A stretch of DNA of 64,000 nt from Minisyncoccia bacterium (GCA_038326985.1 JBBQKQ010000001.1:5943-69942); one strand, 5' to 3'; positions 8,480 through 57,235 are shown, counted from the first letter of the stretch. The notes: generated by a model from the letters alone, not told the origin. Translations and numbers: made by a program.

Positions 8480-8501
8480 AGTTTTTTACTCTTTTATAAT
8501 T

Positions 8502-11495
8502 TTAATTATTTATTAATTTATACTCTTTTAGAAGCATTCCTTCTGAGAAGGATTTTGTTTGCACTAGTTGATAATGTTCATCAAAATAATTCTCAATTTT
8601 AGATTGATACCCCTGGTCATAACTTAGGAGGAGCCACAAATGGCTGTGGCCAGATACAATTTTTCCAGCCTCCGTTGGCAATGTTTTTTCGTCAAACGGA
8701 GGAATGGGCCCTGCGACACTCCTGTCCCACAGGGGTAAAGTAGTTATGAGCGTATTTCCATGGTAGTAATAAAGAAACGGAAAAATTATAAATGGTGCAG
8801 ATAAAGTTATTACATCTTCTTCACTTGCATAACGCTCTATATATGCTGTAGCTTCTTTATAGTTTTCTTTAACTGGTGTTTGTGCATTATTAATTTCCAA
8901 TGAAAGCGTAAACAACATTACAGCAACTAATCCAAATCTTGCAAATCTTGCAACTACCGGCCTATAAGTAGAAAACATCCAGGATACTAAAATATAAAGT
9001 GATGGTGCAGTGAATATAAGATATCTACTTAAAAATACTGGTTTGTAAAAAATACTTATTGCAAATGATATTGCAACTGGTACAATAAAACTCAAGAGGA
9101 AATAAAATGTTTCAGGTGAACTTTTTTGTCTTTTTTGTAAGAACATAAAAACTAACAATACTATGATTGGCCAAAAAGAAACTAGAATGGTATTGGTATC
9201 AGGCGTTTGAAAACCAAATAAAAACTGTGAAAAAGTGTTAAAAAGGTCAACTGTCGTAGGCTGTATAAGTCCAGGTTGAGAGTTACTTGCACTTCCCAGG
9301 GACTTCACATAATAAATCCAAGGTAGAAACCCTAATGCAACTAACCCGCCAGAAATTATAAATTTTTTAAATGATCCCTCAGGAAATATTTTAGTGTTTA
9401 AAAAATAAAATATAACTTGTGTGATTATGAATAAGGAAAAAAAGTAATGTACATACATACCGATAATAGAAATTAACGTATACCCTATCCAGACTTTTTT
9501 ACTAGGATTTTTCCAAAGTGAAACAAATAGATATTGACTCAAAAGAACCAAAAAAACAAACATGGTGTACATTCGAATTTCACTTCCATACCAGTTCATA
9601 AAAGCCGAGGCCGCAAGTAATATTGATGCGTATATACCAACATTACTATTATAAGCGCGCTTACCAACAAAATAAATTAAAACTATTGAAGCTAGAAAAA
9701 AAATGAGTGAGAGGAGTCTTGCAACTTCGATACTATCACCTAGAAAATAGCGCCAAATGTATAAAGTAAAGTGGTAAAGTGGTACGTGCACATCTTGACC
9801 TATAAGGTTTAATATTTTGGCAGGTGAATGTGAAGTTTGCCAAAGACTTTGTGATTCATCCAGTCTTAAACTTTGTAAACTAAAAACAATTTTTGAAAGT
9901 AATGCTGCGAATATTAGCAATCCTGATATGATTACATTACTTTGAAAACTAGAAATAGTTTTAACTTTAGTTATCACTTTTTGAAGTTCTGTTTTTTTGG
10001 TTTGTGGCAATGCTGCATAAATAAAAGGTACGAATATTCCTATATTTAGAAGTGCCCATGCAGTATTAGTAAAAAATGAAGCTGTAAAACCTTCTCTAAA
10101 ATATGAATATCCTACTCCAACTATTACTAATACTATATAAGAAATTTGGGGTATTACTAGCTTTATAAAGTTACCTTCAACAGCTTTTTTAGAAGTAACT
10201 TCGAACTTTGATTTCTTATTTGTTAGTGCTGCCCATAAAGCCTTTATATGTATGTTAAAACCAGAGTTTGAAAAACATAGTGAAGAAAAGGTAAACGAAT
10301 AGTTTGTTGACTGCTCAAGCAATAATAAGGTTAGAAAGATATATGGTAAGAATACTGAAGCAAGAAGCATTGTTGAGGAAACTATGGGTACGGCACCAGT
10401 GAAAAAATAAATCAGTGGAATACAAGCATCTATTACAACTACTATGCCTGATAAAAAGAAACACACAGAAGACATATATTGTAAGCGTTGTTTAAACGTA
10501 AGTCCATGTGTTTTATTTTTTCTTGAAAAAATGCCCCGAAAAATAATATTATGTTTGAAAATAACGTCCAGTGCTCCCCGGGCCCATCTAAATTGTTGAT
10601 TAAAATAAGACAGGAAGTCTTCAGGTGCTAAACCTTCCGCTAAAACCTCTGGTACGTAAACCGATTTATATTTTCTTTCATGTAAAAGTATTCCTGTTAA
10701 TAAATCTTCGGCAATTGATGCTTCCCACATGCCCCCGACTTCGCTCAGTGCGAGCCTCGATAAAACCATATTTGTACCACACATAGTAGCACTGTTGTCA
10801 CGATTTTTACCTTTACAAATTGGACCAAAGAAAAGCTCTTGTTGTTCCCAAGCACTTTCAGTAATAATGTTTACATCAGAGTTTTTATAAAATTGAGGTG
10901 TTTGAACATATGCTACTTTTTCGTCTGCGAAATAAAGCATTGTTTTCTTTAAAAAGTCAGTATGAGGAACATGATCAGCATCAAAAATAGTAATATATGG
11001 TGCACTTGTTTTACTGATTGCATGATTTATATTACCTGCTTTTGCACCTCCGGGAATTGTACGAGTAATACTAGTAACGCCATGTTTTAAAGCAAGCTCG
11101 TCAATTTCTTGCCAATTATCTTTGGATGCAACTAACCCATCATTTAAAATAAATATTTTAAAATTTGGATAGTCCATTTTTTTTGCAGCTATTATTGTTT
11201 CTTCAACTATTTGGACTGGCTCCCCACATACTGTTATAAAGACATCTACAGGTTGAGAAAAATTTGGGTCTTTAATTTCTGGCATGTATTCCGTATTCCA
11301 AATAGTGTAAAGAAAGGTCATAAATTGAAAAACATGAAAAACTTCTCCAAATATTAATAAGTAAAATACTATAGAATTACTTACAACAAATGTAAAAGCA
11401 ATGATATAAAAATATATTAACGTAAGAAGTACAGCAGAAAGAATGAGGATTTTATTTACTTTAGTTTGTAAAAACTTTTCACGAGGGTTTTGCAT
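8502..11495 (-). CDS. fusion protein: processive GT2 beta-glycan (cellulose-synthase-like) synthase plus C-terminal GT-C (ArnT/PMT-like, COG1807-type) domain
   Basis: 997 aa. N-terminal half has BcsA/CesA-type motifs: DVFITVCGEP, ILNDG, ITIFDADHVP, VQTPQFY, AEDLLTG, QQFRWARG (QxxRW). No PilZ domain was seen. From about residue 545: LRLDESQSLW...VPLYHFTLYIWRYFLGDSIEVARLLSLIFF, a multi-TM region typical of GT-C enzymes that use lipid-linked sugars. Confidence 0.8.
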   Translation of the reverse strand: MQNPREKFLQTKVNKILILSAVLLTLIYFYIIAFTFVVSNSIVFYLLIFGEVFHVFQFMTFLYTIWNTEYMPEIKDPNFSQPVDVFITVCGEPVQIVEETIIAAKKMDYPNFKIFILNDGLVASKDNWQEIDELALKHGVTSITRTIPGGAKAGNINHAISKTSAPYITIFDADHVPHTDFLKKTMLYFADEKVAYVQTPQFYKNSDVNIITESAWEQQELFFGPICKGKNRDNSATMCGTNMVLSRLALSEVGGMWEASIAEDLLTGILLHERKYKSVYVPEVLAEGLAPEDFLSYFNQQFRWARGALDVIFKHNIIFRGIFSRKNKTHGLTFKQRLQYMSSVCFFLSGIVVVIDACIPLIYFFTGAVPIVSSTMLLASVFLPYIFLTLLLLEQSTNYSFTFSSLCFSNSGFNIHIKALWAALTNKKSKFEVTSKKAVEGNFIKLVIPQISYIVLVIVGVGYSYFREGFTASFFTNTAWALLNIGIFVPFIYAALPQTKKTELQKVITKVKTISSFQSNVIISGLLIFAALLSKIVFSLQSLRLDESQSLWQTSHSPAKILNLIGQDVHVPLYHFTLYIWRYFLGDSIEVARLLSLIFFLASIVLIYFVGKRAYNSNVGIYASILLAASAFMNWYGSEIRMYTMFVFLVLLSQYLFVSLWKNPSKKVWIGYTLISIIGMYVHYFFSLFIITQVIFYFLNTKIFPEGSFKKFIISGGLVALGFLPWIYYVKSLGSASNSQPGLIQPTTVDLFNTFSQFLFGFQTPDTNTILVSFWPIIVLLVFMFLQKRQKSSPETFYFLLSFIVPVAISFAISIFYKPVFLSRYLIFTAPSLYILVSWMFSTYRPVVARFARFGLVAVMLFTLSLEINNAQTPVKENYKEATAYIERYASEEDVITLSAPFIIFPFLYYYHGNTLITTLPLWDRSVAGPIPPFDEKTLPTEAGKIVSGHSHLWLLLSYDQGYQSKIENYFDEHYQLVQTKSFSEGMLLKEYKLINN

Positions 11496-11503
11496 AAAAT
11501 TTT

Positions 11504-12736
11504 TTACTTATTATATGGAATATAATTTTTTGCTAAATTTGGTAGTTGGCCATTATATAAAGAAATAGCAAACCAAGTCCAATTGTCATCATAATAACTT
11601 AGTTGGGTTTTCCAGTCGTTTATATCAATGTCATAAAGGTAAACTATTTTTTTGTCGTAAATTTCTTTAGCTGATGCTTTGTCCATTATCCAAAAATACC
11701 CAAATGAACCCGCATACATTGCTGGTGATTCTTTTTCGGAAACTATTCCACCGTTATGTAAATATACACTTGCTAATTTCTTTCTAGACTTCCATTCATT
11801 TCCTAAAAATCCCAATCTACTTAGATAGTTTTTTGCCCTTGGGTCACCAAACCACTCATAATCAAGCGCAATTCTAAATGGAACCCGCAATGCATCATAA
11901 GAATAATTTGTTGTATTAGTTGTATTTAAATCATTACTATTTGGTACAATCTCTCCAGAAGATTTACTAATAGTTAGCCAATCAGGTGGAAGAGATGCTG
12001 AAGATTCTTTATCAAGCTTATCCTCAGTTGATCGCAGTAAAAGCCCATAGGAGCTATCAACCAAATCATTCCAGTTGTGAGTAGGGTCAACTTTAGCAAA
12101 TATTTTGTAAGCGTAAGGAGAAAAATAAGAAACATTTATTACATAATTTTCTTTGGCTAAATATTCTATGTCGTCTGCCGCAAGATATGGAACATTTTTA
12201 ATTTGAACAACATCATATTTCCACATGTCATTTAATATATTTTTTGCTTGTTCTAAATACCTTGGGTCTCCCCATCTTTCACTTGCAAATATAAGCGCAA
12301 GTGCAATATCACTATCAGCATCACTTGCAGTATTTTGGCCACCTCTTTCTGTTATTATTCCATAAGTACCATCAATTTTTTTTCCATAAAGCCACGAGAA
12401 AAGATTGTCATTTTCCCTTTTTAAATTCTGATTTGCCCATGTAAGAGTTTTTTCAAAAGTTACCTTATCATCTGAATATACTGCACGCAAAAGTGAATAA
12501 CTTATACCCTCTGAAGTTGTAATATCTCCAGATTGTCTATCAAGTGTTCTTCCACTCTCAACTTCTATGTAGTTCTTTTTATAATTATTCCAAATAAAAG
12601 AAAGCGCATCTTTGGGTGCAAATAGTCTCGTTTGATCAGGATATTTACTATTTAAAAACAATGCATAAACCGCTACTAAGAATGCTAAGGTGATGAATAT
12701 CACTCCAAGATTTTCTCTAGAAATATCTTTTATCAT
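11504..12736 (-). CDS. glycoside hydrolase family 8 (BcsZ-like endoglucanase), membrane-anchored
   Basis: 410 aa. Perfect GH8 signature ASDADSDIALALIFASERW. TSEGISYSLL catalytic-Glu region. N-terminal TM helix. Confidence 0.9.
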   Translation of the reverse strand: MIKDISRENLGVIFITLAFLVAVYALFLNSKYPDQTRLFAPKDALSFIWNNYKKNYIEVESGRTLDRQSGDITTSEGISYSLLRAVYSDDKVTFEKTLTWANQNLKRENDNLFSWLYGKKIDGTYGIITERGGQNTASDADSDIALALIFASERWGDPRYLEQAKNILNDMWKYDVVQIKNVPYLAADDIEYLAKENYVINVSYFSPYAYKIFAKVDPTHNWNDLVDSSYGLLLRSTEDKLDKESSASLPPDWLTISKSSGEIVPNSNDLNTTNTTNYSYDALRVPFRIALDYEWFGDPRAKNYLSRLGFLGNEWKSRKKLASVYLHNGGIVSEKESPAMYAGSFGYFWIMDKASAKEIYDKKIVYLYDIDINDWKTQLSYYDDNWTWFAISLYNGQLPNLAKNYIPYNK

Positions 12737-34506: not shown

Positions 34507-34550
34507 AAACTTATTATAACATCTTGCACTAAAGCACAAGTGTTCCCTTG

Positions 34551-34622
34551 TCCTCGAGACAGGAATCGAACCTGTATCGTACGTACCGCAAACGCATATT
34601 CTATCCATTGAACTACCCGAGG
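34551..34622 (-). tRNA. tRNA-Arg (GCG)
   Basis: The reverse complement folds with acceptor CCUCGGG/CUCGAGG (C1-G72), anticodon stem UGCGU/ACGUA, loop UUGCGGU (G34 C35 G36, G37) and T arm ACAGG-UUCGAUU-CCUGU. Confidence 0.88.
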
Positions 34623-36269: not shown

Positions 36270-38060
36270 TTATATTAAAATTCTATATAACCTCAAGTCA
36301 TCATAAGAGTGTTTCTCTTTTAATTCCTTAAAAACCGGGTTTAACTTACCTGACAGCTCTTCGTCGTTTGCAAACTTTTCAAAGGCTTTTTTAACTGCGA
36401 CTGGTATTTTTTGATATTTTTTAGGAATTAATTCTTTCACTTCATCTTTCCCGATTTTTTCCCATTCTAAAAGCTCTTCAACATGTCCGAGAATTGTAGC
36501 AATCGTCAAACCACGTTTTTTAGCAATGTCCTCGAGCTTTACTTTTTCTAAAAGGTAATTTAAAGTTTGGTCTTGAGTAGATAATTTACTTTCTTGAACC
36601 TTTGGCATTACTCCCCCTTCAGGACTACCACCACACCTGACAATAAAATCATGTTTTAGTTTCTCCATTCTTCCGGCTTCCGAATTTCTTAATTTCTCTT
36701 GGATAAATTTTGAGTCTTTCAAAATCTTTTCGTCAAACTCACTTATGGCTTCATTTACTAGCAAACTTTTTGCATTAAAACTTTTTAAATGGAGCCCATC
36801 CAAACTTCGTACTCGCGAAAGTGCCACATACCCCTGTCCGTATTCAAAAGTCTCCCCCAAAGAAACTACTGCCGAGTCAAGTGACATACCTTGTGACTTA
36901 TGGACGGTTATTGCCCACGCAAGACGGAGTGGATACTGACTTATTTTTGCTTTTACTTTTCCATCATCCTCAATTGCCCAATCTGCTTGTTTTAAGTTTA
37001 CTGTTTGTCCATTGGTTTTCCTGATTGTAATTCCAAAACTTGAAAGGTCTACGACTTCGCCCATTGTTCCATTTACAAATTGTCCTTCCATATCATTTTT
37101 AGTAAAAATAACTTTAGCTCCAACTTTAAGTTTTAAAATTTCAGGTGACAAACAATTTTTTATTAAACCCTCTACTAGTTTTGCACTTCCAGTACTTATC
37201 ATTTTATATATTTTTTCTGTACCAACCAAATTTTTTAATTTATTTTCATTGATACTATCTACGTCTTTATTATGCGAATGTAGCTCAATAATATCGACCA
37301 AATCAATACCTTGTGGAACTTCCCCACCCTTATTTAAGGGAAGGTTAGGGGGGGTCTCTTCTAGCACTTCAATACTTTCTTCCTCAAATTCTTCTTTTAT
37401 TATCTTCTCTTTTATACCTAGTTTTTTATTTGTCCTCTTTACTAGTTCTTCTAAAATTTCCACATGCATTTCTTCAATGTTATTCGCTCGTATTGCTAAA
37501 AGCAAATTTGTAAATATCTCGTCACTTTGGCGAAACTGTTCTTCTAAGTAGCAAGTTAAAGGCCGAGCTTCTTTCCAAGCTGAGCTTGCAAAGGCAAAAT
37601 GTTTTCCTTGTTCACCAAATTTTGTAACTGGTGGTAGTTGAAAAAAGTCCCCGACAAATATTACTTGAAGCCCCCCAAAAGCTTTTTCTGGATTTTTAAT
37701 AGCTTTACAAACTTTGTTCACATTCTCTAAAGTTTGCGCATCAAGCATCGATATCTCATCTATTATAAGTACAGTGGCATTTTGTATTTTTTTTACAAGC
37801 TTTTCTCGACTCATTATTTCGTCTAGTTTATAGTCATCTATATAATTTGAAATTCCAATCCCACTCCATGAGTGGATTGTACTTCCAGAGATATGTGTGG
37901 CAGCTATCCCAGTTGAAGCCGTGATGCTTGGATATATTCCATGCTCTACCAAATATTTTACGTATTGGTTTATCACGTAGGTCTTTCCAGCCCCTGGAAC
38001 TCCAGTTAAAAAGACATTGCTCCCGGTTTTTAAAATTTCTAAGGCCTCTGTTTGTAGCAT
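36270..38060 (-). CDS. Pif1/RecD-family (SF1B) DNA helicase with a C-terminal HTH-like domain
   Basis: 596 aa. Walker A GVPGAGKTYV, LIIDEISML, GDFFQLPPV, VHKSQGMSLD. Carries GC-rich element B2 in frame. Confidence 0.9.
   Translation of the reverse strand: MLQTEALEILKTGSNVFLTGVPGAGKTYVINQYVKYLVEHGIYPSITASTGIAATHISGSTIHSWSGIGISNYIDDYKLDEIMSREKLVKKIQNATVLIIDEISMLDAQTLENVNKVCKAIKNPEKAFGGLQVIFVGDFFQLPPVTKFGEQGKHFAFASSAWKEARPLTCYLEEQFRQSDEIFTNLLLAIRANNIEEMHVEILEELVKRTNKKLGIKEKIIKEEFEEESIEVLEETPPNLPLNKGGEVPQGIDLVDIIELHSHNKDVDSINENKLKNLVGTEKIYKMISTGSAKLVEGLIKNCLSPEILKLKVGAKVIFTKNDMEGQFVNGTMGEVVDLSSFGITIRKTNGQTVNLKQADWAIEDDGKVKAKISQYPLRLAWAITVHKSQGMSLDSAVVSLGETFEYGQGYVALSRVRSLDGLHLKSFNAKSLLVNEAISEFDEKILKDSKFIQEKLRNSEAGRMEKLKHDFIVRCGGSPEGGVMPKVQESKLSTQDQTLNYLLEKVKLEDIAKKRGLTIATILGHVEELLEWEKIGKDEVKELIPKKYQKIPVAVKKAFEKFANDEELSGKLNPVFKELKEKHSYDDLRLYRILI
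37322..37355 (-). repeat. GC-rich hairpin mini-element, family B, copy 2 (in frame inside the helicase gene)
   Basis: ccccacccttatttaagggaaggttagggggggt. Translated in the host frame as ETPPNLPLNKGGE, compared with TPPNLPLMKGRN at 3971-4003. Same orientation and frame relative to the host gene. Confidence 0.75.
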
Positions 38061-38066
38061 TAAAAT

Positions 38067-38075
38067 ATTATATCA
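38067..38075 (-). promoter_or_regulatory. extended -10 box (TGATATAAT) 6 nt upstream of the helicase ATG
   Basis: The minus strand reads TGATATAAT-ATTTTA-ATG, with no SD. Confidence 0.6.
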
Positions 38076-38123
38076 CTCAAAAGAGAAAAGCGCCCAACGG
38101 AAGTTGAACGCTTTAAACCTGCT

Positions 38124-38747
38124 TTACAAATAAATATTCTTAAAATCCAAATTCAAGAAAAACTTTTTTACTTTTTCAAAATCAACCTCAAATCCTTTCA
38201 TCATAAAAATCTCATCATCTTCTATTTCATCAAAATATTTTAAACTTTTTAAAATTAAAGACGCATTTAAGCTAGGATATTTTATATTACACTGATCGAG
38301 TAGATATTGTAAATTAAAATCTCGAAGTAAGAAATATAAATCAACATAATCTTTTTTAGTCGATCTTTGGCAAATTGCACTTAATTTCATGCAAGCAATA
38401 TCTAGTTTGCTCGCTAATTTTAAATATTTTTCATTTTTAAAAATTTCCAACATTTCATATTTGATTGTAAAAAAACTGACCTTAACACCATTGTCCAACA
38501 AAAACACAAGTGTATTTTTTGCTTCTCTAGTTATTTCTAATTTATAATTTTTGAAAACTTCTCGGCATTTTTCAAAAAGAATGGCTACATCAAAATCTTG
38601 ATCTGTAAAAAAGTCAAAGTCGATACTTTCTCTATGTCCTAAGTAAAGTGCCAATGCGGTACCACCAGCCAAATAAAAATCATTTTTAAAATTCTCCATT
38701 AGTGGCAACACTTCCATTCTCGCTTTATCTAAAACTTCGTATTTCAT
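38124..38747 (-). CDS. nucleotidyltransferase, AbiEii/AbiGii toxin-like (type IV TA family)
   Basis: 207 aa. FYLAGGTALALYLGHRESIDFDFF is the characteristic NTase motif of this family. Confidence 0.7.
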   Translation of the reverse strand: MKYEVLDKARMEVLPLMENFKNDFYLAGGTALALYLGHRESIDFDFFTDQDFDVAILFEKCREVFKNYKLEITREAKNTLVFLLDNGVKVSFFTIKYEMLEIFKNEKYLKLASKLDIACMKLSAICQRSTKKDYVDLYFLLRDFNLQYLLDQCNIKYPSLNASLILKSLKYFDEIEDDEIFMMKGFEVDFEKVKKFFLNLDFKNIYL

Positions 38748-48401: not shown

Positions 48402-48489
48402 GGAAGCTTGGCCGAGTGGTTTAAGGCAACAGTCTTGAAAACTGTCGTAGGGCAACTTACCGTGAGTTCGAATCTCACAGCTTCCGCCA
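48402..48489 (+). tRNA. tRNA-Ser (UGA), CCA encoded
   Basis: Acceptor GGAAGCU/AGCUUCC, anticodon loop CUUGAAA, long variable arm, T arm GUGAG-UUCGAAU-CUCAC, then GCCA. A TGTTATAAT box lies at 48367-48375. Confidence 0.93.
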
Positions 48490-48601: not shown

Positions 48602-51070
48602 TTATCTGACAACATGCTTTAATCTCTTAAGCTTTCGCATATCTTGATTGGTAATGTGTTTATGAGTCTCTTTGATTATCACATCTACAATGAGTATGGT
48701 AAGCGCAAAGATAATCATGAGAATTATGAGCGGTATTGTAATTGGCTGGGTATGGAGGAATCTATTACCAAGAGGGGAGAATATGCTACCAAGTAAGATA
48801 ATTGTTTCAATAATAACAGCACCAATAACGAATTTATTTGTGAAGAGTGAAAACATAAAGACATGGTCATAATTCTTTCGTGTGTTAAATGCGTTAAACC
48901 AAATAAATGCTGAGATGAGGAGCATGCATGCAGTTCTAGCTACTCCCACTTCAAGCATATAGACGATAGTGAAGAGATAGAATCCAAAAATAGTTGCAGC
49001 GCCGATGAATGTTCCTAGTATAAGGATACGTATGAGGTCGTAGAAGTTAATAAGGAATCCATGGTAGCGTTTAAAGTTATAGCGTCTGTAGATACTTTCT
49101 GGTTCCTCTGTTGCGATAGAAACATCAAGCAGTCCTGTTGTTACAAAATTGAGCCAAAGAATTTGTATTGCAAGAAACGGTAGTGCTATACCAAGGAGGA
49201 GTGACCCAAGAATTGCGACAACAATACCAACGGAGGATGTCATGAGAAATACTATTGTCTTTCTAATATTTTCAGAAATTGTTCTCGCTTCAAAGATGGC
49301 TAGGACGATATCAGAAAAGTCATCATTAAGGAGAACTAAATCAGAAGCTTCTCTAGCAACTTCAGTACCTGATTTACCCATTGAGATGCCGATGTTTGCA
49401 AGTGACAGTGCTGGGCCATCATTAACTCCATCACCTGTCATAGCAACAACTTCTCCCTTTTCTTGTAATAACTTAACGATACGTTCTTTGTGGATTGGGT
49501 TGGCTCGCGCAAGTACTTTGATGGTGATAAGTTTTTCTTTAAGATCTTTGTCACTCATCGCATCTAACATGTCTCCTGTGAGTGAGGTCTCTCCATCGTG
49601 TGCAAGGATGCCGACTTTTCTTGCAACATGCTCTGCTGTAAGGATGTTATCTCCAGTAATCATAAGAATTTTAATTCCTGCTTGTTTACATTCAGTGATT
49701 GATTGTGCAACTTCTTCACGAATCTTGTCTTCAAAAACAATAAGTCCAAGAGGAGTGATTTCACTTGTTGTAAATTCTTCTGAAGATGATAGTTTTTTAT
49801 ATCCAACACCTAGAACTCTAAAGCCTTCTTTAACGTAAGGAGTAATGATATCAGAGGAAATACCGAGCGCTTCAGGTGCCCCTTTAAAGATTTGGAGGTG
49901 TGTTCCGTCAACGATGTACTCCTTTGCGTTGTATTTCGTTTCGCTTGTAAATGGTAACTCTTTAGTTTCTTGGAATGTAAATGAGTCGTTCAAATGTTTT
50001 TCAATAGTGAGGTCAAGTACATCCCCAACTTTTTCTCCGTTGATGTCTTTGATGTCGATACTATGATACATATAGGAATTAAACTGTGTCTCTGAAAGGT
50101 TGGTGGTATTGATGTTTACGACTTCTTTTACTGTTAAATTACCATGTGTGATCGTCCCCGTTTTATCGGTACAGATAAACGAAACTGAGGCGAGGGTAGA
50201 ACCTGAAGGGAGATTGCGAAGCATGGCTTTTGCTCGACTGATGTGAAGCGCTCCAAGTGACAACACGACAGTAAGTACAATTGGAAGCCCTTCAGGAATA
50301 GTTGCAACACCAAGAGCAACTGTAGTCTTTAACGCGGTTATAAGTTGAATTCCACTTTTTAATGAGAACAACATAAAAGCAACAAGTGCTATTCCAAGAG
50401 CAATGAGTAAATATAATGAAAAGGAAGATAGTTTTTTCTCAAGCTCAGTTTTTTTATCAGCATTGTTTGCGATATCTTTAGCAATTGACCCTACAAATGT
50501 ATCTTTCCCAATTTTCTTAACGAGCATAAATGCATTACCAGAGATAACAACGCTCCCACGGTAGAGCTTATCTTTGAGCGCTTTATTGACTGGGAGCGAT
50601 TCGCCGGTGATCTGACTTTCATTGACCGCTACCATGTGTGACTCAAGGATTTCACCGTCTGCAGGGATAAGATCTCCAGACTCGAGGTAGACAATGTCAT
50701 CAATAGTTACTTCATCAGTTTTTACGGTGTGGAGAATTTTTTCTCGTAGAACACGTGATTTTGTATGAGACAGTTTTTTGAGTGCTTTAATCGCATTGTT
50801 TGCTTTGTATTCTTGTAATGTACCAACAACGGCATTAATGACAAGAATTATAAGAATAACAAATGCGTCAGTCCTTTCCCCTGTCAAAAAAGAGATAAAT
50901 GCTACCCCAAGCAGAATATAGATGAACGGACTTAGGAATTGCTTAATAAAAAGGAGGATGGGATGATTCTTGTTATTGTCTGGAAGTGCGTTCGGTCCGT
51001 AACGCTCTAAATGTTCTTGGGCTCTTTGTTGACTAATACCAGTAAGATTATTTGAAATATACATTATCAA
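48602..51070 (-). CDS. P-type cation-transporting ATPase (type II, Ca2+/PacL-like)
   Basis: 822 aa. ITGESLP, ICTDKTGTITHG, IPEGLP, MITGDN, TGDGVNDGPAL, 10 TM helices. Visibly more G+C-rich than the flanks. Confidence 0.92.
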   Translation of the reverse strand: MIMYISNNLTGISQQRAQEHLERYGPNALPDNNKNHPILLFIKQFLSPFIYILLGVAFISFLTGERTDAFVILIILVINAVVGTLQEYKANNAIKALKKLSHTKSRVLREKILHTVKTDEVTIDDIVYLESGDLIPADGEILESHMVAVNESQITGESLPVNKALKDKLYRGSVVISGNAFMLVKKIGKDTFVGSIAKDIANNADKKTELEKKLSSFSLYLLIALGIALVAFMLFSLKSGIQLITALKTTVALGVATIPEGLPIVLTVVLSLGALHISRAKAMLRNLPSGSTLASVSFICTDKTGTITHGNLTVKEVVNINTTNLSETQFNSYMYHSIDIKDINGEKVGDVLDLTIEKHLNDSFTFQETKELPFTSETKYNAKEYIVDGTHLQIFKGAPEALGISSDIITPYVKEGFRVLGVGYKKLSSSEEFTTSEITPLGLIVFEDKIREEVAQSITECKQAGIKILMITGDNILTAEHVARKVGILAHDGETSLTGDMLDAMSDKDLKEKLITIKVLARANPIHKERIVKLLQEKGEVVAMTGDGVNDGPALSLANIGISMGKSGTEVAREASDLVLLNDDFSDIVLAIFEARTISENIRKTIVFLMTSSVGIVVAILGSLLLGIALPFLAIQILWLNFVTTGLLDVSIATEEPESIYRRYNFKRYHGFLINFYDLIRILILGTFIGAATIFGFYLFTIVYMLEVGVARTACMLLISAFIWFNAFNTRKNYDHVFMFSLFTNKFVIGAVIIETIILLGSIFSPLGNRFLHTQPITIPLIILMIIFALTILIVDVIIKETHKHITNQDMRKLKRLKHVVR

Positions 51071-51225: not shown

Positions 51226-52073
51226 ATGTACGACGTGATGAGTAATAACAATATGGGGGTGCTTAACCAAAAAGGGCTGATAGTTATCGCAGGAAAAGAT
51301 CTACTTATCACGGTAGCACTCTTTATGATGTTAGTGATAGTCCTCGTGTTTATTGTGTTGGTTAAATTTGCGTGGAGGTATAGAGAATGGAACACAAAGG
51401 CACACCATGCTCCAAACTGGCACAACAATGTAGCTCTAGAAGTAATATGGTTGTGCATACCATCTGTTATTGTTGTGATATTGGCAGTTATAACATGGAA
51501 GAGTACTCATGATCTTGACCCATACAAACCAATAGTCTCAAACTTAACACCAGTTATGGTGCAAGTGGTGACTCTTGATTGGAAGCGAGTATTCATCTAT
51601 CTAGAGGAAGGTGTCGCAACAGTTAATTTTGTTCAATTCCCAAAAAAAAGACCTGTAGACTTTATTATTACCTCAGATGCTCCGATGAATGGGTATTGGA
51701 TACCACAGCTTGAGGTCAAGTCTATGCGATGGTTGGTATGAGTGCCTAACTGTATCTGCAATCTCACGAGACGGTTGACTACAAAGGACTTTCTTCAAAT
51801 TTTAGCGGGAATGGTTTTTCTGGCATGAAGTTTACAGCTCAAGTATCGTCACAAGAGGATTATGATGTGTGGGTTCAAACAGTTCGATCATCGCAGTATG
51901 CTCTTTTGATAAATGAATATAATGAACTGCGTAAGCCTTCCAAAGATGCTCCGATACAATAATATGTATCTATCGTTGATGGCTTGTATACTTCAATTAT
52001 CATGAAGTTTATGAAACCTGCTGATCATACTGGTTCTTGTCCTGAAGGAGGTAGATATATAGTGAACCACTAG
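51226..52073 (+). pseudogene. cyoA: decayed cytochrome o/ubiquinol oxidase subunit II (cyoA) fragment
   Basis: ORF 51226..51741 aligns with CyoA (KFAWRYREWNTKAHHAPNWHNN..EVIW...ITWKSTH...VTLDWKRVFIYLEEGVATVN...ITSDAPMNGYWIPQL). Homology continues in another frame (YAMVGMSA*LYLQSHETVDYKGLSSNFSGNGFSGMKFTAQ...DGLYTSIIMKFM). That implies one frameshift near 51720 and in-frame TAA codons at 51747-49 and 51960-62. The lipoprotein signal is missing and no cyoB follows. Confidence 0.75.
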
Positions 52074-52250
52074 TACTGGTGGTATAAGTTCAGTGTAGGC
52101 CATATGTCATGCTATATACCTTTTTACAGACAAATTCAAATCCTTTTTATAGTGTCTATTCTGTCTGTTGAGACCCGACTCACTTACCTCAAATTGAGTA
52201 GTAGAAAGACGCTAAATATCCTTATGGTGGTTGTACCTACAGGTACCTAA

Positions 52251-52269
52251 CTCACATGTACCGCAAATG
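52251..52269 (+). repeat. degenerate copy (copy 0) of the cassette-end motif
   Basis: ctcacatgtaccgcaaatg compares with cccacgtcttccgcaaatg at copy 2. It is followed by the same ACCCTTAnnAAATAAGGGT hairpin as copy 1. Confidence 0.5.
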
Positions 52270-52284
52270 TTTTTTATTAAAAAT

Positions 52285-52310
52285 ACCCTTACAAAATAAG
52301 GGTTAATATT
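52285..52310 (+). terminator. hairpin (ACCCTTA-CAAAA-TAAGGGT) after motif copy 0
   Basis: 7-bp stem, nearly identical to the hairpin at 53783. Weak T tract. Confidence 0.4.
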
Positions 52311-52438
52311 TTAACTTCAACGAACTTTTCGTAAAAATATTCTTTTTATAAATTCTCTTTTATATTTATAAACTATGGTATAAATAATAAAATAGTATAA
52401 ATTGTGTTATAATTTTTGATGTAAAAACAATCAAAAAT

Positions 52439-52969
52439 ATGCAACCCTCAATCCCAACAGGCGCACCCTCACAAGAAATAAAAAAAGAAGGTTTTGAAAT
52501 TGTTTCTGGCAACCCAGAACTTGTAGAACTTACGCGAGTGCTTTTTGATAAAATGATAAAGCCACTTTATGGCGACCAAACTGTGGCAATGGATAGAATT
52601 GAAAGAGGTGAAGACAGGACTACGCAAATACTTTTTTCAGAGGAAAAAGATGTTGGTATTTTAGTGATTAAAAATAAGCCAAATGGTGAGTTTGCAAGTG
52701 AAGGTGCAGACAATGCGATTGAAATTAAGACACTATTCGTAATTGACCCAGACAATCGCCCAAGACAAGGAACAGGCACAAAGTTAATTTCCCAAGCCAT
52801 AGACCACGCTACAAATGCAGGGGCGGATAATTTAGCAGTTACAGTTTCGGCGACCAAAACAGAAAGTTTGGCATTTTTCCAAAAGCATGGATTTGAAATT
52901 AAAAAAGAAATGCCTGATAAATATGTGCAAGGAGTGACAGAGTTTTTGCTAATTAAGAAATTAAAATAA
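52439..52969 (+). CDS. GNAT-family N-acetyltransferase
   Basis: 176 aa. The acetyl-CoA motif RPRQGTGTKLI is followed by ...SLAFFQKHGFE. TGTTATAAT lies at 52405-52413. Confidence 0.8.
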   Translation: MQPSIPTGAPSQEIKKEGFEIVSGNPELVELTRVLFDKMIKPLYGDQTVAMDRIERGEDRTTQILFSEEKDVGILVIKNKPNGEFASEGADNAIEIKTLFVIDPDNRPRQGTGTKLISQAIDHATNAGADNLAVTVSATKTESLAFFQKHGFEIKKEMPDKYVQGVTEFLLIKKLK

Positions 52970-52970
52970 T

Positions 52971-53294
52971 ATGCAAAATACTCTAAATATAAATGTTCAA
53001 GAACCATACTTTTCTTTTATTAAAGACGGGCAAAAAACAGTAGAGGGGCGACTAGCAAAAGAAAAGTTTACTTCACTTAAAGTCGGAGATTTTTTAATGA
53101 TAAATGAAGAAGTAAAAAAAGAAATTGTGGGAGTGTATATTTACCCAACATTTAGCGATATGATAATTATGGAAGGTGTAAAAAATGTTATCCCTGATGC
53201 AAAAGACCTAGACGAAGCAGTGGGTGCATACTATAAGTTTTTCACACCAGAAGACGAACAAAGTTTAGGTGTTTGTGCTATAAAAATAAAATAG
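52971..53294 (+). CDS. ASCH (PUA-like) domain protein 1
   Basis: 107 aa. EPYFSFIKDGQKTVEGRL...LKVGDFL. The start lies 1 nt after the GNAT stop. Confidence 0.8.
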   Translation: MQNTLNINVQEPYFSFIKDGQKTVEGRLAKEKFTSLKVGDFLMINEEVKKEIVGVYIYPTFSDMIIMEGVKNVIPDAKDLDEAVGAYYKFFTPEDEQSLGVCAIKIK

Positions 53295-53306
53295 CAGACA
53301 AAATAT

Positions 53307-53717
53307 ATGAACCAAAAAACACCTCCAAGTGGACGACCTACAAATCAAAACGAAAATAAAGCAACTTATGAATTTACTTTGCAAAAAAAGTATTTAGATT
53401 TTATTAAAGATGGTTCCAAAACTGTGGAAGGTCGAATTGGGTCAGGTGCATTTAGAAATATGAAAGTTGGGGAAACTATAAAGTTCTTTGACCCTAAGAA
53501 TCCCAATAACTTTGTGATTGTAGAAGTGACACAGAATAATCATTACAAAACATTTAGAGATATGCTTGTGGGTGAAGGTGTAGATAAAATGTTGCCTGAT
53601 ACTAAAACAGTGGACGAGGGTGTAAAAATCTACGAGAGAATACCAAATTATTTAGAGAGGTGTAAAAAGAGTGGATGTGTGGGGATTGGAGTAAAAGTAC
53701 TTGCTAAATCTAATTAA
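53307..53717 (+). CDS. ASCH (PUA-like) domain protein 2 (paralogue with an N-terminal extension)
   Basis: 136 aa. KKYLDFIKDGSKTVEGRI...MKVGETI. Collinear with ASCH 1 (YKTFRDMLVGEGVDKMLPD versus YPTFSDMIIMEGVKNVIPD). Confidence 0.8.
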   Translation: MNQKTPPSGRPTNQNENKATYEFTLQKKYLDFIKDGSKTVEGRIGSGAFRNMKVGETIKFFDPKNPNNFVIVEVTQNNHYKTFRDMLVGEGVDKMLPDTKTVDEGVKIYERIPNYLERCKKSGCVGIGVKVLAKSN

Positions 53718-53742
53718 AACCGGACTGCTTCCTCTAGGATTG

Positions 53743-53774
53743 CCTGCCGAACATTGTCCCACGTCTTCCGCAAA
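53743..53774 (+). repeat. cassette-end motif, copy 1
   Basis: cctgccgaacattgtcccacgtcttccgcaaa, 25 nt after the ASCH-2 stop. Confidence 0.85.
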
Positions 53775-53782
53775 AAAATATT

Positions 53783-53810
53783 ACCCTTAGAAAATAAGGG
53801 TTTTTATTTT
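53783..53810 (+). terminator. intrinsic terminator after motif copy 1
   Basis: ACCCTTA-GAAAA-TAAGGGT followed by TTTTTATTTT. Confidence 0.7.
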
Positions 53811-53858
53811 GACTGGGAAATAAACATTCGTCAAAAGTTCGTGGTATACTTTTTTTAT

Positions 53859-54554
53859 ATGAAAGAAAAATTATTACTTGAACCTAAATGTGTCATTCCA
53901 GAAGAGTATAAAGATAGAAAAGTATTTTTCCTTGCTGGACCAATTCGTGGTGGTGGAAATTGGCAAATGAGAGCAGCAGAAACTTTATGGAAAAAATATC
54001 CCGGTTGCATTGTTGTTGACCCATCAAGATGGGATGCTGCAGAAAAAAATGCAAAGTCAGAAGAAGAAAGATCAAAAATTACTGAACACAGAAAAAACGC
54101 AATCGGTGTAAAAGATGAAAGTCTTTATCTCGCTCAAGCACCTTGGGAAAGTCATCATATGAAAATTGCGAGTGAATTAGGTACACTTTTCTTTTGGCTG
54201 GAAAAACAATCCAAAGATGACCCACGCCTACAAAATGAAGGAGTGTATGCACAAGATACAAGAGTTGAAATGGGTATTTGGATTGAACGAGCTCATAATA
54301 ATCCGAGTTTGAAAATTAAAATTGGAGGAAATTGGGAGATTGATGAAACTGGCAAAGAAACAGAAAACTCTTTTGGAGGAATGAATTTCATTGCTTATTA
54401 TTTGACTGGCGAAAAGGATAGAAGAAAAGTTTACAATGGTGAAGTCAAAAGCGAACATTTAGTTTTGGCACATTCATTGGAAGAATTTTTAGAAAACGCT
54501 GTTGTTGATAAAGAGAAAGTAGAGCCAAAAGTTCCTAACATGCCAATGAAATAA
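53859..54554 (+). CDS. nucleoside 2-deoxyribosyltransferase-like (NDT/DrHyd-fold) protein
   Basis: Trimmed from track ORF 53754..54554, whose first 35 codons translate the repeat motif and terminator. MKEKLLL...RKVFFLAGPIRGGGNWQ...WESHHMKIASELGTLFFWL...YAQDTRVEMGIWIE fits the NDT-like pattern (hFLAGPi..W ... E.G). TGGTATACT lies 8 nt upstream of the ATG. Confidence 0.6.
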   Translation: MKEKLLLEPKCVIPEEYKDRKVFFLAGPIRGGGNWQMRAAETLWKKYPGCIVVDPSRWDAAEKNAKSEEERSKITEHRKNAIGVKDESLYLAQAPWESHHMKIASELGTLFFWLEKQSKDDPRLQNEGVYAQDTRVEMGIWIERAHNNPSLKIKIGGNWEIDETGKETENSFGGMNFIAYYLTGEKDRRKVYNGEVKSEHLVLAHSLEEFLENAVVDKEKVEPKVPNMPMK

Positions 54555-54574
54555 TTTAATTTTCTTCCAAAACC

Positions 54575-54606
54575 CCTGCCGAAAATTGTCCCACGTCTTC
54601 CGCAAA
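54575..54606 (+). repeat. cassette-end motif, copy 2
   Basis: cctgccgaaaattgtcccacgtcttccgcaaa, 20 nt after the NDT-like stop. Confidence 0.85.
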
Positions 54607-54625
54607 TGAAATAGAGTAAAAATAT

Positions 54626-54650
54626 CCTTATAAATTAAGGTTATTTTTTT
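54626..54650 (+). terminator. intrinsic terminator after motif copy 2
   Basis: CCTTA-TAAAT-TAAGG followed by TTATTTTTTT. Confidence 0.55.
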
Positions 54651-54733
54651 ATTTGTAATTTTTACAGGTTGTGATAGAAAAACACTAGATATGCAAAATC
54701 AAATATTTTTGTTACACTATTAATACAATACTT

Positions 54734-55423
54734 ATGCAACCACCAAGACCAGAGCCACAACAATTAGAATTGCAACCACAAAAAGTTGAAGATTTAAGCA
54801 AAGAAAAATATTTCACCGTGGAAGTGGGGTCTTCACCACAATTAGAAGAATTAAAAAAACAAGCACGAAGTCTAAGAGATTTACCATTTATAGAAAAACT
54901 GGAAACTCTCAAGAAACTTTCCACCAACCCATTAAAGAATGTATATGATTTAGAACCTAACCTTAGTGGAGTTGCAGTATTGAAAGCCCAGTTAGAGAAA
55001 AGCGCAAGAATAGAAGATATTCTAAAAAAAGAACAGACTCTTTCTTATGCGCTTGAAAAAGGTTATGGTTGTTGTAGGTATCAAGCGTTATTGTTTTTCT
55101 TGCTAAGTATAGAAGCAGGTTTAGGAAGTACTGGAATGCTTTTAACTAAAAGAGTATTTGGGAATTTCTTTTCAGTTTTCAATGTTGTCTTTGACGAAAA
55201 AGGAAACAGGCATGCTTTTTCACTTTTCAATGACAGTTTATTAGAAGGAAACTCTGCTAGATATAATATGGATTTAACTGATTATGATATCGTCCCAAAT
55301 AACTTTTCTTCTCAACAAGATTATCCATATTATGTAAAAGAGAGTAGTGAAATTCAAATTTACAAAGTTTCAGGTAAAAATAAAAGGAAGTTATTAGGGC
55401 TTTACGCGCAAGGAATTAACTAA
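54734..55423 (+). CDS. hypothetical protein, possibly a transglutaminase-like/papain-fold cysteine enzyme
   Basis: 229 aa. EKGYGCCRYQALLFFLLSIEAGLG resembles the transglutaminase-core Cys helix (G.C..fa.lf..l.r..G). Downstream NRHAFSLFND could supply the His/Asp. Tentative. Confidence 0.35.
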   Translation: MQPPRPEPQQLELQPQKVEDLSKEKYFTVEVGSSPQLEELKKQARSLRDLPFIEKLETLKKLSTNPLKNVYDLEPNLSGVAVLKAQLEKSARIEDILKKEQTLSYALEKGYGCCRYQALLFFLLSIEAGLGSTGMLLTKRVFGNFFSVFNVVFDEKGNRHAFSLFNDSLLEGNSARYNMDLTDYDIVPNNFSSQQDYPYYVKESSEIQIYKVSGKNKRKLLGLYAQGIN

Positions 55424-55438
55424 TTTCCTCTAAAACCC

Positions 55439-55470
55439 CCTGCCGAAAATTGTCCCACGTCTTCCGCTAA
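55439..55470 (+). repeat. cassette-end motif, copy 3 (last copy, abutting the convergent glycosidase gene)
   Basis: cctgccgaaaattgtcccacgtcttccgctaa, 15 nt after the stop at 55423. Confidence 0.85.
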
Positions 55471-55480
55471 ATAATAATAA

Positions 55481-57235
55481 CTATCTGTTCACAAAGACGT
55501 CAATTGATTTCTGGTTAATCATATTTCCCATATTATCTTTTGCAACAAAATTTATTGTATAATTTTTACTTGATTTCCAATTCCACCCTGGAAGATCTAC
55601 GATTGCTTCTTTGTGTGGATAATCTACTGACGAATCGTAAAGCTTATTTAAAACATCACCATCTACTTGCCAAAACATTTGGTATTGGCTTAATTCTGTA
55701 TTTTGCAAAATTGCTTTCCACGGTTGCACACCGCTGAGATTGATATTTTGAGTTGGCCACCAAACCTCAATTAATTTTTGAGATTGAGAGGATTGAACAG
55801 GATTTGTGCTGGAGGCAGTAGTAGTGGTTGAATCGTTTACTTGGATAACAAGTAAAGAGTCAATCCAAAAATAATTTTGTGTCCAGTCAGATTTAAAAAT
55901 TCCTACTTTCAGAGTGTATTTTCCTGAAGCTGTGGGAGTCCAGCTTTCTAAAAATTTTAAACTAGAGTTTGTAGTTAAAGTTTGTCCTTCTTTAAATTTT
56001 TGGAAAACTTTTTGATTACTTTCATTGTATATTTCAATATCTACAATCACATTTTGTAAGGTGGTGCTTCCATTTCTAATTGTTATATAAATAGAAGTAG
56101 GAGAGTTTTTTGTTGGCATAGCTGGACTTAAAACTCCACTCGCAGAGATTGCAGAAGTTGGACCTGGAGTTACAAAATTTCCTGTGTACCAATTTTTTAT
56201 TACAGTTTCTGCTGACTTGTTTTGAGGAGAGTAGTCAATATTTCCCGGACCTCCATAGTTGGGATCGCTGTTCCAATCCCATAGAAATATTCCACTTAAA
56301 TAAGGATAGTTATTACAATATTCGAAAAATGCCTGGTAGTCTGTTTTCTGCTCTAATTCATCATAAGCACCCGATGGTTCTGCTGGGTTTAAATGGGCAC
56401 CTGCGCTACTTCTATAACCAATTTCTGAAAAGAATATTTTCTTACCAGTTCTTTGTTGTAATAATTGAATGTCATTTTTGTTTATAATATCCCATGATTG
56501 CTTTAATTGTTCTACGTTGTTATTTGAATTTGACTGAAGTGGCCAATAAGCTGAAATACTTATTAAATCTAGTTTGTCCCAGAATTCTATATGATCCTTT
56601 TCATCACCCCAAGTATCATAGTTACCCCAGTTTGCACCATAAGTAATTTTTCCAGTGTAGCGTTTACGAACTTCGTCAATAAGCCTGTTCCAATTGGTAG
56701 TGTTAGTACTGTTTACACTTGGGGTTGTTAGGCTGATTAGCTCTGTTCCTAACACATATAGTTCGACATTATTGGATTTGGCTATATCGGCATATTTGTT
56801 AAGTATATTTCCATAATTAGCAAACCAAAGGTCCCTGTTGGACGGATTTATATTTGCCCTCCACTCCCAAGTAGTAGATTCAACATGAGGTTTTAACATC
56901 ACTTTCATGCCTTGATCATGTATAAATTTGATTGCGCTTGTAAGTGCTATATCTGTTGGAGTGTTGTAGCCCGCAGAAATTTCTGTAGAGTTTAAGTTTG
57001 TTTGATAAATTGGTATTGCCAGCCCTACACTGTTAGCCCCTATGTTTTTTAAATTTAGTACTGACTGTTTAAAAGAGTCACTCCCAAAGTCTGTTTCTGA
57101 TCGAGATTGAATATCAGCACCTTTAAATTCCTAATCACTCGGTGCTGCAGATGTGTGAAAAGTTGAAATGACAGACAAAGAAATTATTAACATTCCGTTT
57201 AATGCCTTTTTGGATAATATTTTTAATTTAAACAT
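55481..57235 (-). pseudogene. secreted (beta/alpha)8 glycoside hydrolase (clan GH-A-like) with a C-terminal Ig-like domain and a WWP/FWQVDG domain, interrupted by one in-frame TAG
   Basis: The track ORF 55481..56908 starts mid-domain. The same frame is open upstream to the ATG at 57235 (MFKLKILSKKALNGMLIISLSVISTFHTSAAPSD*EFKGADIQ...), except for the TAG at 57133..57131 (codon 35). Candidate catalytic Glu residues lie in VLGTELISL and FFSEIGYRS. The C-terminal 95 aa are homologous to the GH6 N-terminal repeats. Confidence 0.6.

Follow-up and report, generated by a model that had tools for sequence, protein, structure and literature searches.

The question raised by this locus is what the function may be of a 32-nucleotide sequence (32-mer) that is found, almost unchanged, behind three successive small gene units downstream of an intact tRNA-Ser(TGA) gene. 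The locus lies in a stretch of 64,000 nucleotides (nt) from a Minisyncoccia bacterium (GCA_038326985.1, JBBQKQ010000001.1:5943-69942), which was analyzed as a whole and is in the following called the window; all positions are counted from its first letter. The homologues found for the window indicate that it is part of the genome of a member of the Patescibacteria/Paceibacterota, which belong to the candidate phyla radiation (CPR). We favor, with a probability of roughly 0.4, the reading that the 32-mer is an attachment-type (att-type) recombination site between gene cassettes that were acquired serially at a hotspot linked to tRNA-Ser. What the repeat, its positions, and its likeness to tRNA-Ser contribute to this reading, and what speaks for other explanations, is considered step by step.

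The 32-mer has the consensus sequence CCTGCCGAA(A/C)ATTGTCCCACGTCTTCCGC(A/T)AA and is present in three copies:

53743-53774, + strand: motif copy 1, CCTGCCGAACATTGTCCCACGTCTTCCGCAAA.
54575-54606, + strand: motif copy 2, located by a pattern search of the window.
55439-55470, + strand: motif copy 3, which is not followed by a hairpin and whose likeness to the other junctions stops at ..CCGC.

The three copies are identical to each other in 31-32 of their 32 positions (97-100%), whereas their flanks are only ~60-80% alike. That there are three near-identical copies had been claimed in an earlier note on this DNA and is real: with up to 3 mismatches allowed, no further match is found on either strand of the 64 kb, for which shuffled sequences predict 0, and the 5' half of the 32-mer, when searched for alone, retrieves the same three sites only. 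All copies are located within 3.2 kb, in intergenic spacers that follow one another, and none in the remaining 60 kb, the window as a whole having about 70 such spacers. As judged from the sequence and the ends of the open reading frames (ORFs), copies 1, 2, and 3 start 25, 20, and 15 nt past the stop codon of the preceding gene, respectively, which is exactly the range of 15-25 nt given before, and all cassette genes are co-oriented with the motif. Counted from the stop codon before it, each of the three copies is in a different frame, and it was therefore rejected that the motif is coding. The 32-mer is pyrimidine-rich and without significant internal structure (z -0.74). It is thus unpaired and not itself the terminator, as had been stated; terminator-like is the hairpin that follows.

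The 32-mer belongs to a junction module of ~85-100 nt and is its near-invariant core. In order, the module has a pre-motif (TTCCTCTAAAAC-like), then the 32-mer, a spacing of 8-19 nt, and a hairpin with a run of T. The parts of the module other than the three full copies are:

52236-52269, + strand: junction 0, a degenerate motif copy with 20/32 positions in register (the earlier note had placed its copy 0 at 52251-52269).
52285-52303, + strand: hairpin 0, ACCCTTACAAAATAAGGGT, with a weak T run.
53728-53742, + strand: pre-motif element 1, CTTCCTCTAGGATTG, from the alignment of the junctions.
53783-53812, + strand: hairpin 1 with T run, terminator-like.
54560-54574, + strand: pre-motif element 2, TTTTCTTCCAAAACC, from the alignment of the junctions.
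54624-54655, + strand: hairpin 2 with T run, ATCCTTATAAATTAAGGTT.
55424-55438, + strand: pre-motif element 3, TTTCCTCTAAAACCC, which holds the 11-mer TCCTCTAAAAC.

Upstream, the likeness extends ~14 nt beyond the 32-mer, the sequences before copies 1, 2, and 3 being TTCCTCTAGGATTG, TTCTTCCAAAACC, and TTCCTCTAAAACCC, and the pre-motifs of junctions 1, 2, and 3 being CTTCCTCTAGGATTG, TTTCTTCCAAAACC, and TTTCCTCTAAAACCC. The stretch AAAACC(C) that had been noticed before copies 2 and 3 is therefore part of a likeness which is real, reaches further, and is shared by all three. The pre-motif was also considered as a general signal for the end of a cassette, which was rejected because the loose pattern matches mostly coding DNA. 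Downstream, hairpins of the family ACCCTTAnAAAATAAGGGT are found in the whole window only at 52285, 53783, and 54624, which is 8-19 nt past copies 0, 1, and 2, so that the related hairpin previously seen after these copies indeed defines a family with only three members. Upon terminator scoring the hairpins after copies 0 and 1 are terminator-like and the one after copy 2 combines a long T run with a stem that is weaker; in other words, hairpins 0 and 1 qualify as intrinsic terminators, hairpin 2 does so loosely, and the 32-mer does not. The description of the units as self-contained, each composed of a -10-like box, one or more genes, the motif, and a hairpin with T run, holds. Rfam contains no match to the junctions.

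The degenerate copy in junction 0 requires separate comment. In register, 52236-52267 agrees with the motif at 20/32 positions, and an unrelated site in pyrG scores 21/32; the likeness of this copy to the tRNA, for which 11/15 had been claimed, is not significant, since it is equalled in 161/1000 shuffles. The copy is credible only because a hairpin of the family follows 15 nt behind it and because 52253-52301 aligns with 54592-54640 of junction 2 over 49 nt with 76% identity, the part from ..CCGCAAATG rightwards through the hairpin being the best kept. The fourth copy of the earlier note thus stands by its context and not by its sequence, and it is treated here as an older, degraded junction.

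The tRNA gene to which the array is linked is the following:

48402-48489, + strand: tRNA-Ser(TGA), intact (ARAGORN; Rfam tRNA, 60.9 bits).

The end of the motif, TCCCACGTCTTCCGC, is identical with TCTCACAGCTTCCGC (48473-48487), which are the last 15 nt before the CCA of this tRNA-Ser(TGA), at 12/15 positions in register, and the 3' end of the tRNA is the sole other match to TCCCACGTCTTCCGC within 3 mismatches in the window. An equally good match was obtained with 59/20000 shuffled 15-mers, with 58/3000 shuffled 32-mers when any 15-nt window was allowed, and with 2/6474 natural GC-rich 15-mers of the window, corresponding to p of about 0.003-0.02. The match had been reported before, together with the proposal to compare it with shuffled controls, and is confirmed by them as being above chance. 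The same register is found elsewhere in the Paceibacterota, namely in the tRNA-Ser(TGA) of locus L014 (11/15), in the tRNA-Ser(GCT) of locus L016 (10/15), and in a second tRNA-Ser-like gene of L016 (9/15). Other tRNAs than tRNA-Ser reach 10/15 at most, with the best matches at other positions and never at the 3' end. Because the register is shared with several tRNA-Ser 3' ends, the 3' half of the motif can be read in tRNA terms, with CCCAC as the 3' strand of the T stem, GTCTTCC as that of the acceptor stem, and then the discriminator G. This tRNA-like half is followed by CAAA, as is the case in the tRNA-Ser(GCT) of L016, in which CCA is not encoded. All copies of the motif are on the + strand, as is tRNA-Ser(TGA), and lie 3.8-7 kb downstream of it.

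The genes between the junctions are of accessory type and form three cassettes:

52439-53717, + strand: cassette A, with genes for a GNAT acetyltransferase (52439-52969) and two ASCH proteins (52971-53294 and 53307-53717) (Pfam).
53859-54554, + strand: cassette B, encoding a 231-amino-acid (aa) protein with a weak nucleoside 2-deoxyribosyltransferase-like (NDT-like) match (Pfam PF15891, E 0.005, which is below the cutoff).
54734-55423, + strand: cassette C, encoding a 229-aa protein of a rare family.

Cassette B is preceded by a -10-like TATACT at 53845-53850 (promoter scan). For the protein of cassette C there is no match in Pfam, NCBIfam, or PADLOC; a word-indexed search returned only the protein itself, and among 1.84 billion representatives 38 distant relatives (≤ ~40% identity) were found. 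A confident functional assignment or a match to a defense system was obtained for none of the cassette proteins. For the NDT-like protein, 20 homologues other than the query were found, with up to 82% sequence identity, all of which are encoded on Patescibacteria-type contigs. The homologues with 82% and 69% identity are found in unrelated contexts, as compared with an identity of at most 47% for relatives of the neighboring GH113 gene. For example, in locus L007 the NDT-like gene lies 140 nt after a tRNA-Arg(CCT) gene, in L014 it lies ~4 kb after a tRNA-Ser(TGA) gene, as in the window, and in L016 (Ga0395910_005595, 8244-8523) its stop codon is 21 nt away from the 3' end of the minus-strand tRNA-Ser(GCT) gene without encoded CCA. 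The tRNA-Ser(GCT) gene of L016 is followed by the second tRNA-Ser-like gene, to which ARAGORN assigns the unusual anticodon ACT. Loci L024 (1269-1400) and L025 (802-986) code for NDT-like proteins that are identical, and their DNA agrees for 37 nt behind the stop codon and is wholly different thereafter; at the breakpoint in L024 there is a local repeat, ATCAATC(C/T)TTTAAT, with copies about 60 nt apart. These genomic contexts mark the NDT-like gene as a movable module. In L007 the gene has direct repeats around it, which were considered as copies of the T arm of tRNA-Arg; this was rejected, only a 10-mer being in common, which is not significant.

The DNA behind the NDT-like gene also bears on the interpretation of the 32-mer. 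In the window, in L007, and in locus L010 the 3' flank is homologous for ~20 nt past the stop codon, through the pre-motif, and divergence begins exactly where the 32-mer starts. The 11-mer TCCTCTAAAAC is identical in the flank of the NDT-like gene of L007 and in junction 3 of the window, where it stands behind an unrelated gene. The 32-mer itself is absent from all homologue loci that were fetched.

To the left of tRNA-Ser(TGA) there is the core gene pyrG. To the right, the order is ATPase, cyoA-like gene, junction 0, cassette A, junction 1, cassette B, junction 2, cassette C, junction 3, and GH113:

48602-51070, - strand: gene for a P-type cation ATPase (Pfam E1-E2_ATPase, Cation_ATPase_N/C), located between the tRNA and the array.
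51226-52073, + strand: decayed cyoA or cytochrome oxidase subunit II-like gene (Pfam COX2_TM, 51226-51741), with a frameshift and an internal stop.
55481-56908, - strand: gene for a GH113 glycoside hydrolase (Pfam), convergent with the cassettes; it borders the array on the right, and 10 nt separate its stop codon from copy 3.

Translation in three frames shows that the cyoA-like gene goes on in a different frame and is interrupted by a stop; there is no cyoB gene nearby. The segment from 48 to 52 kb has a GC content of 0.37-0.39, the maximum in the window. By this GC content and the frameshifted gene the DNA between the tRNA and the array looks foreign, and the cyoA-like gene, next to the P-type ATPase gene, looks like decaying foreign DNA in a CPR genome.

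Arrays of small genes were also found in two of the loci that carry a homologue of the NDT-like gene. L010 (Ga0376277_0001423, 8950-12650) has a second cassette-like array, composed of APH, NDT-like, 355-aa, NUDIX, and bPH_2 genes in both orientations, and a related sequence (GCTGACCGTCTGGGAGGACGTT.GAA / GCTGGCGGGCTCG.GTTAGAACCAAATTGGTTC) is found at each of five junctions that flank four small genes. The NDT-like gene of L010 lies between two copies of a 26-nt repeat, which differ by one mismatch; this repeat was considered as a second att-type site. This was rejected, since in locus L022 the repeat is part of the own 5' module of the NDT-like gene; it travels with the 5' region of this gene and therefore does not lend independent support to an attachment site. 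L010 also contains a 91-nt repeat (at 9792 and 12423) upstream of its two minus-strand genes, for which Rfam has no match, and a perfect palindrome, GAACCAAATTGGTTC. In L014 (Ga0558126_02154), in the region downstream of tRNA-Ser(TGA) that includes the NDT-like gene, a 46-nt promoter-like module stands in three copies before small genes (7960-8005, 8654-8699, and 9084-9129); it has the form TTCGACA .. TATAGT .. ATG with the inverted repeat GTGCGC-TATAGT-GCGCAC. From these arrays it is seen that the variable regions of such genomes are put together from small units, with repeats specific to the lineage at the joints, which is in line with the att-type reading. Such repeats can be regulatory modules, however, and are for this reason not unambiguous evidence for a recombination site.

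An attachment-type site is favored as explanation of the 32-mer because of the bounded core, the location of the copies in consecutive spacers, the geometry of a tRNA-linked island, and the breakpoint of homology at the left edge of the 32-mer. A site recognized by its sequence should have an invariant core with sharp borders and less conserved arms, as is found here, and the island geometry is given by an intact tRNA at one end, copies downstream on the same strand, and in between a higher-GC segment with a decayed cyoA gene. The junction module would separate three, perhaps four, small and independently transcribed accessory cassettes downstream of tRNA-Ser(TGA), and the 32-mer would act at the DNA level as the site for a site-specific recombinase encoded elsewhere. 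Its 3' half would copy or mimic the last 15-18 nt of a tRNA-Ser gene other than the resident one. A candidate for the true target would be a tRNA-Ser of the lineage ending with CCCACGTCTTCCGC (end ..GTGGGTTCRAATCCCACGTCTTCCGC, 5' end GGAAGAC). Cassettes would be added one by one at the 32-mer, n cassettes being bounded by n+1 copies, and each cassette transcript would pass through the motif and stop at the next hairpin. Of all this, the repeat with its positions, its missing structure, the likeness to tRNA-Ser, the accessory character of the cassette genes, and the breakpoint at the left edge of the 32-mer are established; the process of recombination, the place of the crossover, and the enzyme are what we infer.

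It should be noted, however, that several findings weigh against this proposal. Of the 74 window ORFs with at least 90 aa, 65 were scanned, and families of tyrosine and serine recombinases are absent from these, in agreement with the earlier note, in which no integrase had been seen in the window. No empty site, circular junction, or alternative order of cassettes was seen, the nearest relative of the GH113 enzyme at the right border being only 47% identical. The outer dyad of the 32-mer, TGCCGAA / TTCCGCA, is not significant, as 431/5000 shuffles (8.6%) equal it, and copy 0 is weak on its own. The exact 19-mer ATTGTCCCACGTCTTCCGC gave only chance matches in high-GC coding DNA of GTDB representatives and JGI metagenomes and none in IMG/VR; in the latter the 5' half of the motif has no match and the tRNA-like half ATCCCACGTCTTCCGC has six unrelated matches, none of them to a tRNA-Ser with that end. 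Bar chance, the 19-mer and the 18-mer are thus absent from these collections, and an independent occurrence of the motif with which it could be compared is missing. In L010 and L014 the repeats are on the promoter side, which shows that such arrays can arise by the reuse of regulatory modules without site-specific recombination. And because the cassette genes are co-oriented and the motif lies inside a 3' untranslated region (3' UTR), a role at the RNA level fits equally well.

The likeness to tRNA-Ser has its limits, too. A gapped local alignment ends after 18-20 nt, the 5' 14-17 nt of the motif not being tRNA-like, and the motif differs from the resident tRNA at 3/15 positions. When it is combined with the resident 5' strands (GGAAGCT, GTGAG), each stem acquires one mismatch, C-U in the acceptor stem and A-C in the T stem. 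Two broken stem pairs make it improbable that the motif is a copy of the resident tRNA's own end, and if the motif is tRNA-derived, its source would be another tRNA-Ser outside the window. The earlier idea that the copies are decayed scars of the resident tRNA end is not supported, since they are near-identical with each other and yet deviate from this end at 3/15 positions with two pairs broken. What is left of serial insertion at tRNA-Ser, as it had been proposed, is the tRNA-like 3' half, the foreign-looking DNA, and the movable NDT-like gene; a true copy of the resident tRNA end is not supported, and a recombinase was not found among the scanned ORFs.

The most serious of the other explanations, although in our opinion still unlikely, is that the pre-motif and the 32-mer are an RNA-level 3' UTR element, which as a single-stranded platform would be bound or processed by a protein, an RNase, or a small RNA co-regulating the cassettes. 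It is consistent with this explanation that the motif is always found 15-25 nt past the stop codon on the coding strand and before a terminator-like hairpin, that it is unstructured and rich in pyrimidines, and that a core kept so strictly would suit a binding site. Indeed, the full motif goes with the 3' ends of genes rather than with their 5' ends, since it stands behind each of the three cassettes, even behind the last one, which has no + strand gene after it, and ahead of cassette A there is only the degenerate copy. A conserved 3' UTR or protein-binding signal had already been named in the earlier note as the alternative, and the position and the unstructured core fit it; the in-register likeness to tRNA-Ser and the place downstream of the tRNA, however, would be left unexplained. 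Moreover, homologues of the NDT-like gene keep the first ~20 nt of the 3' flank and not the 32-mer, so that the motif is not an ancestral part of the NDT-like mRNA, Rfam has no match, and one 3' UTR on three unrelated genes would still require joining at the DNA level. As another possibility, without a dedicated recombinase, the junction would be a locally reused intergenic module that is copied between neighboring spacers by homologous recombination, gene conversion, or slippage and that then serves as a patch of homology for the swapping of cassettes between strains. The minimal mobile elements of naturally transformable bacteria are a model for such swapping. The lack of a recombinase among the scanned ORFs, the extension of the junction likeness over ~85-100 nt, beyond the 32-mer, and the reuse of promoter-side modules beside unrelated genes in L010 and L014 are all in line with it. 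Gene conversion should homogenize the entire junction, however, rather than leave a 32-nt core of 97-100% identity between flanks of 60-80%, and the likeness to tRNA-Ser would have to be a coincidence; we therefore regard this explanation as rather doubtful.

Two further possibilities are even less probable. The 32-mer could be a dispersed intergenic repeat, like a repetitive extragenic palindrome (REP) or a miniature inverted-repeat transposable element (MITE), that was by chance sampled three times in this locus. It is short, intergenic, and located beside terminator-like hairpins; but there are zero other copies in the 64 kb with their about 70 spacers, all copies stand in consecutive spacers, and neither terminal inverted repeats nor a palindrome are present, which makes this very unlikely. 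Chromosomal integrons come to mind as well, since single-gene cassettes of 0.8-1.5 kb stand in a row and all end with a repeat that is uniform in this genome; the junction would in this case be an attC site. The attC sites are imperfect palindromes of 57-141 nt with RYYYAAC ... GTTRRRY. There is no intI among the scanned ORFs of the window, the folds of the junctions reveal only the small terminator hairpin and not an imperfect hairpin uniting both ends, the boxes RYYYAAC / GTTRRRY were not found on reading the sequence, and the cassettes have their own promoter-like boxes and terminators. The integron reading, the least probable of all, is by these findings largely refuted already.

Among known systems, islands that target a tRNA and contain repeated partial copies of it come closest. 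An example are the tycheposons of Prochlorococcus, in which the same tRNA is used for integration again and again and partial tRNAs are thereby left behind along the island (10.1101/2020.12.28.424599). The window shares with them a variable region with an intact tRNA at one of its ends, repeats in direct orientation that resemble a tRNA 3' end and lie downstream on the same strand, and small cargo modules together with decayed remnants; in tycheposons successive insertions push older material outward. Unlike in tycheposons, no integrase or fragment of one was found among the scanned ORFs, the units are single-gene, 0.8-1.5 kb long, and provided with their own promoter and terminator, and the repeat matches the resident tRNA at only 12/15 positions, over its last 15-18 nt, with a non-tRNA 5' half that is equally strictly conserved. 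With integrons the array has in common small, mostly single-gene cassettes, a closing repeat that is homogeneous per genome and different in other genomes, and a cargo of rare or unknown genes; it differs from them by the lack of intI, attI, and Pc, by a repeat that is unstructured and without attC boxes, and by cassettes that are not promoterless. The literature was searched for integrons or gene cassettes in Patescibacteria, and nothing relevant was found. A third system are the pdif sites of Acinetobacter plasmids, which are Xer-dependent, have the dif-like organization 11-6-11, and alternate in orientation. The pdif modules, too, are small gene modules between short conserved sites, and their recombinase is encoded outside of the module. 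The sites in the window, however, are all direct, and a test for a dif-type site was negative, the dyad being no better than that of 8.6% of the shuffles and hence not significant.

Some observations made in the course of this analysis concern other parts of the material. The only public contig found with DNA of this locus is L006 (Logan SRR19962015, 1266 nt), which is identical with 53337-54602 of the window and terminates inside motif copy 2; its end is an assembly break, because copies 2 and 3 share ~31 nt there, and the organism is thus present in SRR19962015. At 36270-38747 of the window, a gene for a PIF1-like helicase with a C-terminal helix-turn-helix domain adjoins a gene for an AbiEii-type nucleotidyltransferase toxin; this pair is accessory-looking and located near tRNA-Arg(GCG) (34550-34622). 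In locus L017 (ENA ERZ27283041 k141_382745, 142-296) four tandem repeats of ~40 nt, starting with GCCACCTTAGCTGTTTTGGTA, stand directly upstream of a tRNA-Thr(CGT) gene and are partial copies of its 5' end.

CPR bacteria have tiny genomes with few recognizable mobile elements, and little is understood of the ways in which accessory genes are acquired and shuffled in them. If the 32-mer is an attachment-type site, then a boundary site that joins single-gene units next to a tRNA without a recombinase nearby would point to a trans-acting system of cassette capture in CPR bacteria. One may go further and consider, with considerable reservation, that Paceibacterota carry integron-like arrays of single-gene, self-expressed cassettes with a recombinase encoded far away and a boundary site specific for the lineage, of which the window, L010, and L014 would be three instances. 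If true, cassettes would be captured by a system that is neither an integron nor a tRNA island bearing an integrase, and whose boundary in the lineage considered here mimics the 3' end of tRNA-Ser. As an attachment-type site the 32-mer would also be a concrete sequence with which other genomes can be searched and which can be tested biochemically. And if it should turn out to be a 3' UTR signal instead, it would be among the first candidates for an element of post-transcriptional control in these organisms.

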